Positions 1,462 to 22,273 of a stretch of DNA of 25,536 nt are shown in pieces. The position numbers and the translations under genes are program-made. The notes under the pieces were generated by a model. The model saw nothing but the letters and a program-made list of their open reading frames with translations, was not told where the DNA came from and did no database searches. Every line of letters begins with the position of its first letter. The first letter of the stretch is position 1. This DNA comes from an uncultured Gammaproteobacteria bacterium (GTDB lineage Bacteria; Patescibacteriota; Patescibacteriia; UBA9934). The stretch covers positions 1 to 25,536 of the forward strand of contig CAZVBP010000002.1 of the NCBI GenBank assembly GCA_964625515.1, read 5' to 3'.

Positions 1462-2379
1462 ATGCGGAAGGGGTTTGCACAAGTAATTTCGCTAACTCTA
1501 GCTATTTCTTATTTTTTTGGCACGCAAACAGCATTTGCGGCGATGTCTTCCGCAAACTACCAAATCCTTTGGGATGAGTTCTCCACCGGAGGCGGCCAAG
1601 GTTCGTCTGCCTCGTATTTGCTCCGCGACAGCGTTGGTGGCGGCGGACTTCAGGCGACGTCGGCGAGTTATGTGCTCGATTCCGGGTTTCGCGGCGGACT
1701 TTATGATCAGGTTGTGAACTTCTCTCCTCGAATTCAAGACCGATCATCACAGGTTGCTGCCACAAATTTTGCTTCGAATATCGTCACCGTCACGACCACA
1801 TCCGGGATCGTGGTTGATGATTGGGTGCTCCTTGTGCAGAACGAAGGTGCATCACAGGTGGCAGGCATGGGGAAAGTGACCGCGGTTGATGCAACGACGA
1901 TCACACTCGCGTCACCATTGGCCGGAGGAACGCCAACAATCGACGGTGTATCGGATTATGTCTATGAAATGTCGTCGTCCGGTACTCCCGGATTTGGCAC
2001 GCTGAGCACGTCGGCACTTGCGCTTCATTCGGTGGGTTGGGTTGCGAATGCCGACGTCGTTCAAGGGTATAATGCGTATGTCTTCGAAGATGGAGATTTA
2101 CGAACAGGCGAGGGGGCCGCTATCGCCGATGTTACCGACGGACAGGTGAGCGCGGGAGACTCGGAATATGGCGCACGGTCATCGGACTCATCGTTAGCGC
2201 TGTCGAGTTTTGATACCGAGGACAGCGCGATCACGTCGTCGCCTCAACAGGTTGCCAGCGTTTCCGCAAATCCATTTGAGAGTGCGGGATTTGTTACACT
2301 CAAGGTTGGGATCGATAGCACGCAACAAGGCGGGTCTTATGGGCAAACACTTTCGATTATTTTTGTGGGCGATTACTAG
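1462..2379 (+). CDS. Secreted beta-rich surface protein with a C-terminal WxL-like/pilin-like domain (305 aa)
   Basis: Signal peptide ending AFA-AMSSANY. N-terminal 'MSSANYQI..D....GGG..SSASY.L.DS.G' motif of a type I recognise from CPR secreted proteins. C-terminal 'DG.V.AG..EYG...VTLKVGI...GSYGQTLSIIF' strand pattern. I chose start 1462 over 1420 because it gives a clean signal peptide. Confidence 0.75.
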   Translation: MRKGFAQVISLTLAISYFFGTQTAFAAMSSANYQILWDEFSTGGGQGSSASYLLRDSVGGGGLQATSASYVLDSGFRGGLYDQVVNFSPRIQDRSSQVAATNFASNIVTVTTTSGIVVDDWVLLVQNEGASQVAGMGKVTAVDATTITLASPLAGGTPTIDGVSDYVYEMSSSGTPGFGTLSTSALALHSVGWVANADVVQGYNAYVFEDGDLRTGEGAAIADVTDGQVSAGDSEYGARSSDSSLALSSFDTEDSAITSSPQQVASVSANPFESAGFVTLKVGIDSTQQGGSYGQTLSIIFVGDY

Positions 2380-3172
2380 CGTTCTCATTCTCGGCCTCCA
2401 TCCACAAGAAACTGTTGCGGTCGCCGCGCCAAATGCCGCGGACGTTTTTGTGATGCCCGGGGAGAGCGTGACGGTTTCCGTTCCTGTGGTCAATGAACAA
2501 TCAGGAGATCGAACCATTGATTTCTCTCTCTTTGTTGCGGAATTTTCTGAAAATCAAGAGGCGCCTACATTTCGAAGACCGACCGCGGAAGAAGCGGCGT
2601 GGGTGCAGATGAACATGTCGCATGTTTCGTTAGCGCAAGACGAGATGCGGACCGTTGATGTCACTGTTTCTGCGCCAAAAAATGCCCCGGCAGGGGTTGC
2701 ACCATTCGCGCTTGTTGCGTCCGATCGCGTCACTGGCCCCGTGACGCTTTCTTACGGTGCGGCAACGCTGATTTTCGTTACGGTTGGCTATCCGCAATAC
2801 GCCGGATCGTGTGACGCATTGTTGCGCGTATCGGACGATCGAGTGCAGATGCGCGTGAAGAACATTGGTCGGGGTATACTGGTTCCAAACGGTGTGGCGC
2901 AACTGCGCGGCCCGTTGGGAATTGTGTTTGCTGAACAGGAGCTCGATGTGCGCGATGGTCGTGTGTTGCCGGGGCAGAAAAAGGAATGGACAGTTCCAAT
3001 TCCTTCTGCGCCATGGTGGGCGTTTGGGACGCTTGTGCTTCATGTGAACGATGAAGCGTTCTACGAATCCCCGTGTGCACCGATTGTGGTGTCTCGCGCA
3101 TTCGTTCTGCCGCTTGGCATTGGTGTGGTTGTGCTTGGGATAGGCACGATGCTGTTCCTTCGTCGACGATAA
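2339..3172 (+). CDS. DUF916/WxL-interacting-like (chaperone-like Ig-fold) protein with a C-terminal membrane anchor (277 aa)
   Basis: Signal peptide from M2339. 'PGESVTVSVPVVN', 'V.V.V.AP..AP.G...AL', and a second Ig-like unit 'VKNIGRGILVPNG..QLRGPLG...GRVLPGQ'. C-terminal TM plus basic tail LFLRRR. Confidence 0.65.
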   Translation: MGKHFRLFLWAITSVLILGLHPQETVAVAAPNAADVFVMPGESVTVSVPVVNEQSGDRTIDFSLFVAEFSENQEAPTFRRPTAEEAAWVQMNMSHVSLAQDEMRTVDVTVSAPKNAPAGVAPFALVASDRVTGPVTLSYGAATLIFVTVGYPQYAGSCDALLRVSDDRVQMRVKNIGRGILVPNGVAQLRGPLGIVFAEQELDVRDGRVLPGQKKEWTVPIPSAPWWAFGTLVLHVNDEAFYESPCAPIVVSRAFVLPLGIGVVVLGIGTMLFLRRR

Positions 3173-5675: not shown

Positions 5676-8600
5676 TCATGGAGGGACTCGAGAAAAATAC
5701 CATCAAGGCCTTCGCAAAACGCTGCATGGCGATGTTTGCGGTTTTGTCGTTGAGCCTTACCGCGATCACGGCAGCTTTTCATGATGCGCGTGCAGCAACG
5801 CCTCCACGAATTTTGATGTATCAGGGACGATTGCTGAATTCCAACGGCGTTCCGCTTTCCGATAGCACCGCCACGATGTCGTTTGCGCTGTATGATGCGT
5901 CGAGTGCGGGGACGTGTTTGTGGTCGAACAATTCCGACACGTGTGCGTCGGTCACAACGAGATCTGTGACGTTGACCGCAGGGCTTTTCTCTGAAGCGCT
6001 TGGTGATACTGGGGCGTCGTATGCCGCTATTGCTGAGTCGGTATTCATGAACAATGCCACCGTCTATCTTGAAGTAACGGTGAACGGCGAAACGCTCACG
6101 CCACGAAAACAGATGCTTGCGGCGCCGTATGCAATGAACAGTGATTCGCTCGATGGATACGGAACGACGACGAGCGGCGCAACATCGTCGAAGGTTCCTG
6201 TGTTTGATACGTCAGGAAATTTGGTGATCACTGGCGCGCCACAGGGGACCGGTGTGAGCCAAGGATCGCTCTACGTGAACCCTGCATCTGCTGGCGTTGC
6301 CGCGAACGAGATCCTGCTTGGCGTTGCCGTGGAAGGATCGTCGCGATTTTCTGTGGATGAAGATGGCGATACAAGCGTTGCGGGAAACTTGATGGTGGGT
6401 GGCTCCACGCTTGCTGCGCCATTCAGCGTCGATTACGTCAACGGTATTGTGAATGTTGGTGATGGCACAAGCACGAACTCGATCATTGATTTTCGTGCGT
6501 CGGATGGATCGACGGGGCGGTTCTCTTATATTCCCGGCGATTCATTTCGTGTGACCGACGGGTACTTTTCCTATAGTGGCCCAGGAACGCTTCCGAGTTT
6601 ATCGAGTGAAGCGATTGAATATTTTTCGATGACTGAGGCGATCTCGGGAACTTCCGGGAACAATTTATCCACGATCGGCATGTACGGGACGTATGGAGAG
6701 ATTACATATTCCGGAATTGAGGGGAGCGGCACGACCGCCCATGAGGTGAATAGTATTGAGGGCTTGTTGAGTATCTCCGGAGCATCGTCAACGCTCACGT
6801 GGGGGAGCGCGATCGAGGGGTCTGTGACGAATACCTCAACGAATGCTTCCTTGCTTCAATCGAATGGTTTCCTTACTGGCGTTACGGGGAACGTGACGCA
6901 CAACGGAACTGGTACGACCATCGGTGACGTTCGTGGTGTGTATGGCTTAATTACCTCATTATCCGGCACGATTACGGATGCATTTGCGGTGATCGGTCGG
7001 TTTAGCACGCCCACAGGATCGGTGACGAACGGATATGCAATTTATGGAAAGAATACGGAAGCTGGCACCCAGCGGTATGGCGTGTACGGCCAAGCGTCGG
7101 GAGGAACAAATAATTATGCGGGGTACTTCACTGGCGCTCAGGTGCAAATTGATACCGACACCACGCCAGACACCCCAACGCTTGCGGACGGCACGGGCGA
7201 TTTATATATCTCCGATGATCTTGAGGTGCGCGGTGATGTGTTGTTTCACGAGATTGGCGCGATGAATACGTTTACTTTCCGGAGCTCGCTTGCCACCACT
7301 CAGGCTGCTGCGCAGTTCATCACCGACGGACTCACCAGCGGCGTGGGTTTGCGTGTGGTACGGGGAGATGATGCTGGCGTCGCATTTACCGGTAATGTGG
7401 TTCATATTGAACAAGATGATTTTGGATCGGATAACAGCGGCACCGCGCTGCAAATCGATCAAGCAGGAGGCGGCACTGCCGTTGGGCTTCGCATTACGCA
7501 GTCCACCACCAGTGCACACGTGGCAAATTCCACTGGAAATAACGCGCTCGTGATTGACGTGAATGAAGCGGCAAGCACGGATAACGCAATTGTGATGCGA
7601 TCGGATGCAGACGGAACTGCAGACACAGAATTCCGTGTGACCACCGCCGGCGACGCATATGCCGACGGCGCATTCACCGGTGCGGGCGCCGACTTTGCAG
7701 AATATTTCCCCACAAACGATGCAACGCTCGATGATTTTCATCTCGCATGTATTGATGCGAGCGATGCGGAGAGCGTCAAACGTTGCGAGGCGGGTAATCA
7801 CGAAATCGTTGGTGTGATCTCCACGAACCCTGCATTCATTGGAAATCTTGTTGGTGATGGCACGGAGGACTATCGCAATGATGCGCGGTATCGCTTGGTT
7901 GGATTAACCGGACAGATCGATACACTTGTTACTACGGCCGATGGAGCAATTGCCGTAGGCGATCCGATTACGACATCATCATCGGCCGCTGGATACGGCG
8001 CAAAAGCATTCGGACCGGTGCGCATTGCGGGGTTTGCACTTGAGGCGCTTGCATCGGGGACGGGAACCATTCGTGTGCTTGTGAGCCCACAATGGTACGG
8101 GAGCGATGTGCTGAGCGCATCGGGGTCGAGTACTGATGTTTCCGGAAATCTTGGTCTTCGCGCGTTGCAGCCCGCAACGGCGTCATCACCCCTTGCGGAT
8201 TCGTCCTCGCTTCTCTTGAAGGGTTCTGTATGGAACGGTGCGGGCGCAAGTGACCGCGCAATGGGAATGAAAACGGTTGTGAGCGCGGTGGACGACTATC
8301 GGCTTTCGATCATGAACACAGGAGATAGTGAAGTCGCATCGATCAACGATGACGGCGACATGATGATTTCCGGAAAGTTGTACCCGTCGGATCGCGGCGT
8401 CATGCAGCAGGAGAAATACATTTACTACGATGGATCAGAGGGCGGTGGGGGAGATTTCATGCGCACGAATGCATCGGGATGGTCCACGGGCTCGTACGAC
8501 TTTGCTGAGATGTTCCCGTCACCCGATGCGCTTTCACCAGGGGAACTGGTGGTGTTTGGTGACGGATCAGAACAAATCAAGCGCTCACCTGGCGAGACGT

Positions 8601-15997: not shown

Positions 15998-16160
15998 GGT
16001 GAAGGCGGTCAGTCGACCCACGAGAAACTCGACCCTGAACGCATGTGCCATGCCTGCCGGCAGGCAGGAAGGGTCTCTGCCAGTCGGATTGGATACAGGT
16101 AGGCTCGCTCGAGATCCTTCCTTACGTCAGGATCGAATATCGCTCATGATCGCCTTCACC
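15998..16160. repeat. Composite palindromic intergenic element
   Basis: Terminal IRs GGTGAAGGCGGTCA / TGATCGCCTTCACC (1 mismatch) followed by a T7 tract. Internal perfect 16-bp palindrome TGCCTGCCGGCAGGCA (16051-16066) and a GATCCT...AGGATC hairpin. Confidence 0.7.
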
Positions 16161-16185
16161 TTTTTTTCGCTTGATCCTTCACTCA

Positions 16186-20689: not shown

Positions 20690-21697
20690 ATGGCATTAAC
20701 AAAAAACGATCTTGAAATGCGGGCGGCACTCTGGAACGGTGTGATGGAAAAGATTCGTGAGTTTTTCCGTACACGCGGGTATTGCGAGGTGACGACGCCG
20801 ATTGTGGTGAAATCGCCAGGGATGGAACCAAATTTGAGCCCGTTGGGTGTTGATGTGCATACCGATGGTCCGAATGCGCACACCGAGCGCATGGGGCTCA
20901 TCACAAGCCCGGAGTACAGCATGAAAAAGCTGCTTGGCGGCGGCATGGAGCGCATCTTCACGCTTGCACCAGTGTTCCGTGACCGCGAAATGCCCGGCCA
21001 ACGGTGGAGTATTGAATTCACCATGCTTGAGTGGTACCGCCAAGGCGCAGATTATCGTGAATTGATGACGGAGACTGGGGAATTGATCGATTTTGTGTTG
21101 AGCAAGTTCCCCCCTCCTTACGAAGGAGGGGTAGGGGGAGGTCTGCAGCCATGGGTTCGTATTAGTTACGTCGATGAGTTTGAAAAGAAATTTGGCTTTG
21201 TGCCGCATGAGGAAGATCGTGCTCGGCTGATTGATGCGTGTACGGCGCACGGTGTCGCGACCCCAACTGATGATGAACCGGTTCACGAAATTATTGATCG
21301 ATTATTTCAGACGGTCATTTGGCCAAATGTCGTCACTCGGGGTCGATTTATGCTGTGTGAGTATCCTGTGCCGTGCGCGTCGTTATCAAAAGTAAGTTCC
21401 GATGGACGGTATGCGGAACGATTCGAGACGTTTGTGGGGGAGCTTGAGCTGTGTAATGGGTTTACGGAGTTGACCGATGTTGCAGAGCAGCGCCGGCGCT
21501 TCCTTCTTGAAGCAGAAGAGCGAAGATTGGCGAAAAAAGAAGTGTTCCCAATTGACGAAGAGCTTCTTGCTCGGTTAGAATCCGTGTCGTCACCCACGTA
21601 CGGCAATGCGCTTGGCGTGGACCGTCTCGTCATGCTTGCGGCTGGAGCGAATGATATCGATTCGATTCATCTCTTTCCACCATCGGCTCGATATTAA
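20690..21697 (+). CDS. epmA: EF-P lysyltransferase EpmA/GenX/PoxA (335 aa)
   Basis: IREFFRTRGY.EV.TP, LITSPEYSMKKLL, EFTMLEWYR, AERFE...ELCNGFTELTD..EQRRRF, ALGVDRLVML. It has no anticodon-binding domain and is adjacent to efp. Confidence 0.9.
   Translation: MALTKNDLEMRAALWNGVMEKIREFFRTRGYCEVTTPIVVKSPGMEPNLSPLGVDVHTDGPNAHTERMGLITSPEYSMKKLLGGGMERIFTLAPVFRDREMPGQRWSIEFTMLEWYRQGADYRELMTETGELIDFVLSKFPPPYEGGVGGGLQPWVRISYVDEFEKKFGFVPHEEDRARLIDACTAHGVATPTDDEPVHEIIDRLFQTVIWPNVVTRGRFMLCEYPVPCASLSKVSSDGRYAERFETFVGELELCNGFTELTDVAEQRRRFLLEAEERRLAKKEVFPIDEELLARLESVSSPTYGNALGVDRLVMLAAGANDIDSIHLFPPSARY
21107..21142 (+). repeat. Short palindromic element read in frame inside epmA (FPPPYEGGVGGG)
   Basis: TTCCCCCCTCCTTACGAAGGAGGGGTAGGGGGAGGT, with a 9-bp perfect stem CCCCTCCTT/AAGGAGGGG and a GGGGGAGG tail. 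Confidence 0.7.
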
Positions 21698-21706
21698 TTT
21701 CATTGT

Positions 21707-22273
21707 ATGGCATCACCGAACGATATTAAGAAAGGGACCGTCATCAATTTGGATGGCGACTTGTGGGTCGTGACGAGTTTTCAACGCGTGTCTCCGGGAA
21801 AGGGAAGCTCGTTTGTGCGCACGCGCATTAAATCGTTGTCGTCGGGCAAGGTGGTAGAAAATAATTTCAAATCTGCCGAAACGCTCACGTTTGAACAGGT
21901 GAACAACCGTCGCATGCAGTTTATCTTTGGCGATGCAGACACACTTACCTTCATGGACGGGCAGTCGTACGAACAAATCACCCTTGGGAAGGAGATGGTG
22001 GGTGACGATGCGCAGTACTTGAAAGAAGGTCTCGAAGTCGTGATCATCATGCACGGTGAGAAGGCAATTTCCATGGAGCTTCCGCTCAAGATCGAGTACA
22101 CGATTATGGAAACCGAACCTGCAGTAAAAGGCGACACCGCTTCCGGAAACGTGCTCAAAGACGCAAAAGTTGATAACGGTCTCGTCGTCCGCGTGCCAAT
22201 TTTCATCAAAGAAGGCGACCACGTCCTCGTAAACACCGAATCCGGCGATTACGTGGAGCGTGTTGCGAAGTAA
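21707..22273 (+). CDS. efp: Elongation factor P
   Basis: VSPGKGSSFVRTR (Lys at the modified loop position), FMD..SYEQ, PAVKGDTASG, VPIFIKEGD. Confidence 0.97.
   Translation: MASPNDIKKGTVINLDGDLWVVTSFQRVSPGKGSSFVRTRIKSLSSGKVVENNFKSAETLTFEQVNNRRMQFIFGDADTLTFMDGQSYEQITLGKEMVGDDAQYLKEGLEVVIIMHGEKAISMELPLKIEYTIMETEPAVKGDTASGNVLKDAKVDNGLVVRVPIFIKEGDHVLVNTESGDYVERVAK

Follow-up and report, generated by a model that had tools for sequence, protein, structure and literature searches.

The BoxC/PIT/TMECO intrastrand-triplex repeats (Bergler 1992; Hoyne et al. 2000; Holder et al. 2015, PMC4666352) and the Rickettsia palindromic elements (RPEs; Ogata et al. 2000) are, together with the REP/REPIN repeats and their RAYT transposases, the systems closest to the element presented here. 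Ever since the 1990s, BoxC/PIT/TMECO repeats have remained orphans: they were reported strictly from intergenic DNA, and neither a partner protein nor a route of spreading was known for them. In E. coli and many other bacteria, they are built of a pyrimidine domain, a purine domain and a reverse-Hoogsteen domain, in this order, which constitutes a class II (purine-motif) intrastrand-triplex layout, and the consensus of TMECO reads CCCTCNCCC-N3-6-GGGNGAGGG-N3-GGGNGAGGG (PMC4666352). RPEs lie in frame in housekeeping genes that are unrelated to one another, and their translation adds surface segments that the fold of the host protein can accommodate (PMC10969869). Here we analyzed a DNA stretch of 25,536 nucleotides (the window; contig CAZVBP010000002.1 of assembly GCA_964625515.1, hereafter C2), which belongs to a Patescibacteria genome of 877 kb in 101 contigs (53% G+C, 86% complete), the placement being supported by the protein names of close homologs. 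An epmA-like gene of the window carries an in-frame insert, and we conclude that positions 21100 to 21142 are very probably a solo copy of a dispersed repeat with the BoxC/PIT/TMECO layout, equivalent to one end of a small unit built around a DUF559 nuclease gene, that has been tolerated in frame and whose Pro-Pro-Pro (PPP) motif is incidental. As a repeat of such layout appears here in frame in essential genes, brackets a nuclease gene and moves between near-identical lineages as a short patch, DUF559 becomes a concrete candidate for the partner that BoxC/PIT/TMECO repeats have been missing.

A palindromic insert in epmA and its dispersed copies

A first-pass annotation had placed a 36-bp palindromic insertion at positions 21107 to 21142. 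This stretch is read as ttc ccc cct cct tac gaa gga ggg gta ggg gga ggt, giving FPPPYEGGVGGG (residues 140 to 151), and both the hairpin and this reading stand, but the repeat unit proved to be longer and to start at about position 21100. Compared by blastn, the epmA copy matches other copies over 45 to 47 bp at 87 to 91% identity, the matches beginning at 21100, and copies lying in unrelated places are alike at 85 to 98% identity over 45 to 51 bp, which is about the length of the unit. Since the epmA copy aligns with the others from position 21100 on, the left flank GAGCAAGTTCC, which is common to this copy, to the one that closes the DUF559 gene of contig C36 on its 3' side and to copies on C4 and C19, is part of the repeat. 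A hairpin with a pyrimidine and a purine arm, preceded by a short inner flank and followed by a G-rich tail, makes up the unit.

The 21-nt hairpin of epmA, for which no occurrence is expected from 100 shuffles of the window, is present in 11 exact copies in the genome, and allowing up to three mismatches gave 14/15 matches; a reversed control pattern returned 0. An oriented pattern combining hairpin and G tail identified 21 copies, to which a scan for pyrimidine/purine hairpins added 2 variant copies, and the resulting 23 is a lower bound, because the assembly seems to be interrupted by the repeat. Word depth, summed over the source sequencing run, climbs from 9 to 199 over positions 21112 to 21135. 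Contigs begin or end within a few hundred bases of the copies at C16:7-27, C28:131-162, C11:16838-16869, C40:127-158 and C56:288-321. The suggestion that the insert belongs to a dispersed repeat was thus borne out by copies in both intergenic and coding DNA of this genome, and their positions show that solo copies reside between genes as well as in loops where housekeeping proteins are permissive.

The RNA fold predicted for the 61 nt around the insert is ordinary for its composition (z = -0.65 against composition-matched shuffles), and folding energy was therefore dropped as an argument for an element; the case rests on the repeat family and on comparison. At the protein level, the insertion site maps just after D141 of Salmonella PoxA, in the loop past the helix that follows motif 2. 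In an AlphaFold (AF2) model of EpmA with a mean predicted local distance difference test score (pLDDT) of 80, residues 142 to 151 have a pLDDT below 50, and the insert is thus modeled as a disordered surface loop, in agreement with the location that had been proposed for it.

Likeness to the BoxC/PIT/TMECO layout

The stems of all 23 copies are perfect, with 9 to 10 bp, and each hairpin is followed on exactly one side, after 1 to 4 bases, by a tail that mirrors the purine arm with a score of 6 to 7 of 7, the triads considered for the third domain being G.G:C, A.A:T or T.A:T. The mirror score beats the direct-repeat score in 22 copies. Arms GGAGGGG pair with tails GGGGAGG or GGGGTGG, and the two variant copies, both on C14, combine arms GGGGGAG with tails GAGGGGG, showing that arm and tail co-vary; the same three-way co-variation is seen around the DUF559 genes of relatives. 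As judged from this arrangement, the G-rich tail is predicted to supply the third strand in an intrastrand-triplex layout of class II.

The element shares with BoxC/PIT/TMECO the three-part order, a short second loop and a G-rich third domain mirroring the purine arm. Its size of about 35 to 50 bp, its tens of dispersed copies per genome, its loops being less conserved than its stems, and its link to local variability between strains are further points of likeness. However, the heptamers differ, being CCCCTCC/GGAGGGG (within the arm CCCCTCC(TT)) or CTCCCCC/GGGGGAG here and CCCTCNCCC/GGGNGAGGG in TMECO, and the host belongs to another phylum, the Patescibacteria. Moreover, TMECO copies of E. 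coli MG1655 are always intergenic and accompanied by no mobility gene (PMC4666352), whereas 14 of the 23 copies found here are coding and copies bracket the DUF559 genes. The element is accordingly the same kind of repeat as BoxC/PIT/TMECO and not the same sequence family, its triplex being predicted from the layout.

Inverted copies around DUF559 nuclease genes

Only two matches to PF04480 (DUF559), a Vsr-like family of PD-(D/E)XK nucleases, are present in the genome, and each of them lies between inverted copies of the repeat whose G tails point outward (Table 1). The open reading frame (ORF) on C36 encodes 136 amino acids with an intact DUF559 domain, is related to the endonuclease-like protein 3hrl and takes its last residues from the right-hand repeat. 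Solo copies share 11 to 13 nt of inner flank with the ends of these units: the flank GAGCAAG of the 3' end recurs at the epmA and radA copies, and the flank GTTTGCATCAGT of the 5' side recurs at the Wzy_C copy.

The same association is found in other genomes. DUF559 was detected in 23 of 41 relatives, and hairpins of the same class bracket 26 of the 28 DUF559 loci fetched from relatives, which belong to several families of the order. Heptamers and loops vary from genome to genome, yet within a genome they match between DUF559 flanks and solo copies. Hairpins are present in 18/21 genomes with strong DUF559 hits versus 9/20 of the others (Fisher p = 0.009, a value that overstates the association since the genomes are kin). 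The connection to DUF559, to which the first-pass annotation had pointed, is therefore upheld at both loci of this genome as well as in its relatives, and these data show that the repeat forms the inverted ends of small DUF559 units in this Patescibacteria lineage. Literature searches on in-frame palindromic elements in Patescibacteria and on DUF559 returned no description of this system.

This arrangement recalls the REP/REPIN-RAYT systems, in which a short palindromic repeat is likewise combined with a single- or low-copy enzyme gene lying between inverted copies, and in which the variants are likewise specific to a genome. The bracketed gene is, however, a DUF559 nuclease of the PD-(D/E)XK fold and not a Y1 (HUH) transposase, it is a candidate partner only, and REPs are extragenic. 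A RAYT/Y1 transposase was rejected as a partner, as Y1_Tnp genes are present but have no copy of the repeat nearby. These IS200/RAYT-type genes exceed the Pfam cut-off at C1:13275-13604 (in a 291-aa ORF) and C5:3603-3824 (in a 214-aa ORF).

Copies within housekeeping genes

Fourteen of the 23 copies (12 of the 21 oriented ones and the 2 variant copies in QueA) fall within gene calls, for the most part in frame with a housekeeping gene. Coding location was taken from stop-to-stop frames and a crude gene call, and the hosts were then checked with Pfam (Table 1). On its own strand, the element is translated as PPPYEGG, PLLTKEG or SPSLRRRG, and on the other strand as TSPYPSFVRRG or APPPGPLLRKEG. 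It is therefore read in at least four frames over both strands, indicating that it is conserved as DNA and not as a peptide. An opposite-strand copy giving APPPGPLLRKEG is carried by a 466-aa frame without Pfam match (C4:1590-2987; L039), a putative gene.

Comparison with orthologs revealed filled and empty sites. Of the 11 mnmA genes of the genus, 8 are empty at the insertion site, and the element is carried by the genome under study and by G007. At this same site, mnmA of G006 (L062) harbors an unrelated 24-aa insert, EEIFADSLNQASASERLTALTDTV, without pyrimidine/purine hairpin. The MnmA loop is, on these alignments, a putative general hot spot for insertions. Depending on the species, the sites in the SufS-like protein and in RNase HII lack an insert, have one, or have one that is read in another frame, and the peptide is PPPYEGG in some of them.

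These observations make the parallel with RPEs, drawn in the first-pass annotation, an apt one: a palindromic dispersed repeat of a reduced genome is inserted in frame in unrelated genes and is missing from orthologs (of EpmA, MnmA, the SufS-like protein and RNase HII). The two differ in that RPEs measure about 100 to 150 bp and are read in a single frame as a conserved peptide, whereas the element has 45 to 51 bp and an unconserved peptide; in addition, no nuclease partner is known for RPEs, and they have no sequence relation to the element. Since RPEs fail on size and peptide, REP/RAYT on enzyme and location, and TMECO on consensus and location, the element stands apart from each of these models. 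A simple filter would account for its presence in proteins: in essential genes, only stop-free copies that add a multiple of three bases would survive, and copies would for this reason be translated as extra loop residues. In EpmA, a net 12 residues would thereby have been added to a disordered surface loop, the peptide being whatever the frame gives.

Orthologs and history of the epmA site

Most of the close EpmA homologs have 323 amino acids and VLGRSDEW at the insertion site, which confirms that the extra residues stem from an in-frame insertion; relative to these empty orthologs, the net gain is 12 amino acids (17 residues in place of 5). Eight EpmA orthologs carry an insert at the same site, in varied hairpin states and reading frames. 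The hairpin is perfect in the genome under study and in G009, perfect with the other heptamer in P0003, and has one mismatch in P0005 and P0006; the insert is internally disrupted in P0013, has duplicated tails in P0008 and is decayed in P0002. Peptides encoded by the element in these orthologs are SPSLPRRG, PRLTKEG or APPYEGG. Such filled, empty and decayed alleles form a natural series that bears on the origin of the repeat, on the tolerance of proteins, on the reshaping of reduced proteomes by selfish DNA and on polyproline load.

In an EpmA tree computed without the insert columns, insert bearers are scattered and do not form one clade, the starred branches forcing at least four changes. 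Every insert allele has IDFVL on its 5' side, and empty alleles have I/M-N-x-V-L. The clearest case is the pair formed by P0013, which has the insert, and G001, which is empty: identity between them is 98% on the left side of the insert and 97% on the right side, yet drops to 64% in the 45 nt that precede the insert on its 5' side. In these 45 nt, P0013 resembles another insert allele at 89%, and the right junction of the pair falls exactly at the end of the G tail. Because these two genes differ by the insert and about 45 nt of its 5' flank only, the insert allele is old and has moved as a patch. A single ancestral insertion followed by vertical descent is thus ruled out, both by the scattered positions in the tree and by this near-identical pair, and independent insertions at a hot spot are unlikely given that every insert allele has the 5' IDFVL. 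Taken together, the alleles show that the insertion is old and has traveled from lineage to lineage as a patch some 100 nt long, the flank being co-converted on one side.

The nearest relative allele, that of P0002, is 96% identical at the protein level outside the insert, and its copy is decayed; the hairpin of the genome under study is identical to that of ten other loci. Its perfect state would mean that the copy was either kept or refreshed, other copies having probably served as donors in gene conversion, or else that it was re-inserted. In two other sequencing runs, related strains have positions 21098 to 21190 swapped for 96 unlike letters, between flanks that are about 95% alike or better. 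The runs that contain the locus are all represented by DNA contigs, and no RNA run was found.

The same comparisons bear on whether the insert could be an adaptive, lineage-specific Gly/Pro-rich linker of EpmA that evolved in place and resembles other loci by composition. Loop length at this site does vary among distant EpmA homologs, as such a linker would allow. However, an identical 21-nt hairpin in 11 loci and the likeness of 45 to 51 bp between genes that are unrelated and contain the repeat on either strand and in several frames exceed what composition would explain; orthologs keep the nucleotide architecture and not the peptide, and near-identical genes differ by presence or absence of the insert. 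We consider that these three observations refute an origin in place, to which we grant a negligible probability. A peptide conserved over a broken palindrome, with no other copies of the repeat, had been named as the outcome that would speak against a selfish repeat; what we found is an unconserved peptide and a repeat that occurs elsewhere.

Possible routes of spread

Comparison of filled with empty alleles revealed neither a target-site duplication nor an exact left end, only the tail end being sharp. For this reason, transposition, homing and template switching are all candidate modes of copying. Given the units described above, the DUF559 nuclease may drive copying or homing of the repeat. 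Alternatively, no dedicated enzyme would be involved: a non-B structure, hairpin or triplex, would stall replication and thereby lead to template switching and ectopic gene conversion, which would copy the repeat to new sites, the DUF559 genes being passengers with a tendency to settle or survive between the repeats. In line with this, TMECO of E. coli is tied to local genomic instability with no mobility gene nearby (PMC4666352), relatives without a DUF559 hit still hold up to 12 to 16 hairpins, and solo copies consist of one end only, with a fuzzy left boundary and no target duplication. However, chance landing would hardly bracket 26 of 28 DUF559 loci with variants that co-vary by genome and G tails that always point outward, nor would it readily give solo copies the inner flank of the unit ends. 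The co-presence of hairpins and DUF559, even if discounted for kinship, also points to the nuclease, and we regard a spread without any dedicated enzyme as unlikely.

Several points weigh against our interpretation of the epmA insert as the tolerated end of a DUF559 unit. Some relatives are rich in hairpins without a DUF559 hit (12 copies in G013 and 6 in G003), so that the nuclease may be a passenger there or may have been lost. The transfer of a patch from lineage to lineage is equally explained by ordinary homologous recombination. The comparison of filled and empty orthologs covers EpmA, MnmA, the SufS-like protein and RNase HII among the hosts, gene calls outside the Pfam-confirmed hosts are crude, and the translation of the epmA insert as protein is predicted from the sequence. 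Finally, even for the TMECO repeats of E. coli, it is not proven that a triplex or hairpin forms in the cell (PMC4666352).

A further-reaching version of the nuclease scenario would make DUF559 and its triplex-type ends a homing-like mobile system of Patescibacteria, in which solo ends settle in permissive loops of essential genes, pass from lineage to lineage through conversion provoked by the nuclease, with co-conversion of the flank on one side, and are homogenized inside each genome. It would in this way seed about one-sixth of the PPP runs of this genome, that of EpmA included, and raise the dependence of the organism on elongation factor P (EF-P). We find this version quite unlikely as a whole.

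The Pro-Pro-Pro motif

The first-pass annotation had proposed that the PPP motif makes synthesis of EpmA depend on modified EF-P and so creates a positive-feedback loop, with additional pausing at the hairpin and at an internal AAGGAGG resembling a Shine-Dalgarno (SD) sequence. If true, this would be a neat accidental circuit, and retention of PPP for such a bistable switch would fit several facts: the motif is truly encoded (residues 141 to 143), the enzyme that contains it belongs to the EF-P pathway and its gene immediately precedes efp, the EF-P of this genome has a lysine-bearing loop (SPGKG, Lys32), and in model bacteria PPP stalls translation strongly (PMC12856214). However, only 1 of the 120 closest EpmA homologs has PPP, namely, the sequence under study, and the orthologs with an insert read it in other frames or have PP only, which indicates that nothing selects for PPP. 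Moreover, the same frame of the element yields PPP in ValRS, the SufS-like protein and RNase HII. In ValRS, this element-derived PPP, at residue 638, is the second one, the first belonging to the widely conserved MMPPPNVTG close to the N terminus. Over about 940 crudely called ORFs, 37 PPP runs were counted, six of which come from the element. The motif thus looks like a by-product of the reading frame, CCC-CCT-CCT of the pyrimidine arm, rather than a regulatory device.

In model bacteria, the cost of a stall is set by the context of the motif, its nearness to the start, the initiation rate and the growth rate, and it is weakest where expression is low or growth is slow (PMC12856214, citing Hersch 2014). 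Lying mid-gene (codon 141) and not near the start, in a gene whose expression is presumably low and in an organism that grows slowly, the PPP of EpmA is a weak candidate. It would make EpmA synthesis somewhat more EF-P dependent, an effect that is probably small. In addition, the KamA/EpmB-family lysine 2,3-aminomutase (TIGR00238) was not found in this genome, which is 86% complete, nor in 12 of 13 genomes of the genus, several of which are 97 to 100% complete. The substrate of EpmA is uncertain for this reason: it may differ from (R)-beta-lysine, or a partner enzyme may be present and have escaped recognition.

Pausing at the internal AAGGAGG finds no support either. Four-mers of the SD core are not enriched upstream of starts compared to inside genes (107 versus 99 of 867, each start being called crudely as the first start codon of the ORF), so that use of SD sequences is not evident, and the 3' end of the 16S rRNA, which would carry the anti-SD, was not found in the assembly. 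The flat counts agree with a separate remark of the first-pass annotation that core genes here lack SD sequences. Overall, the evidence speaks against a selected role of PPP, and we judge a feedback circuit to be highly improbable.

Features of the locus

The features of the epmA locus, the two DUF559 units and the confirmed host genes are listed in Table 1.

Table 1. Positions of the epmA insert and its parts, of neighboring genes, and of other genes associated with the repeat (positions without contig name refer to the window)
Feature	Position	Strand	Description
epmA-like gene (EF-P lysine aminoacylase family, class II aminoacyl-tRNA synthetase core)	20690-21697	+	335-aa ORF, host of the insert
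Codons S138-P154	21101-21151	+	Coil between helix 122-137 and strand 156-159; 17 residues versus GRSDE (5) in empty orthologs
Left (inner) flank of the repeat unit, GAGCAAGTTCC	21100-21110	+	From blastn and flank alignment
Codons ccc cct cct (Pro141-Pro143)	21110-21118	+	PPP motif; one open frame of the pyrimidine arm
Perfect hairpin with 9-bp stem	21111-21131	+	Pyrimidine arm CCCCTCCTT, loop ACG, purine arm AAGGAGGGG; 11 exact copies in genome
Second loop TA and G-rich tail, GGGGGAGGT	21132-21142 (tail, 21134-21142)	+	Tail mirrors purine arm, 7/7
efp (elongation factor P)	21707-22273	+	188 aa; TIGR00038, 216 bits, above cut-off
DUF559 gene	C36:2281-2583		Between copies 2184-2217(-) and 2613-2646(+)
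DUF559 gene	C19:7043-7357		Between copies 6946-6978(-) and 7379-7410(+)
MnmA			1 copy; Pfam-confirmed host
ValRS	C25:7-2763		1 copy; Pfam-confirmed host
Class-V aminotransferase (SufS-like)			2 copies; Pfam-confirmed host
RNase HII (rnhB)			1 copy; Pfam-confirmed host
RadA			1 copy, opposite strand; Pfam-confirmed host
Wzy_C membrane protein (O-antigen-ligase-like)			2 copies, opposite strand; Pfam-confirmed host
QueA			2 copies (variant heptamer); Pfam-confirmed host

In profile searches, the EpmA ORF matched positions 5 to 303 of the 304 of TIGR00462 with 280.5 bits, for a cut-off of 286.9, and NF006828 with 234; the missing bits are probably the cost of the 12-aa insert. Its nearest solved structures are those of PoxA/GenX, 3g1z and 3a5z. 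The efp gene starts nine bases past the end of epmA, its product is the presumed substrate of the EpmA enzyme, and the epmA-efp pair is kept in relatives. Elsewhere in the window, positions 16068 to 16165 are 83 to 93% identical to another repeat unit, which adjoins the hairpin element on C28, C32 and C33, and the genome harbors further dispersed repeats that are arranged as mosaics.

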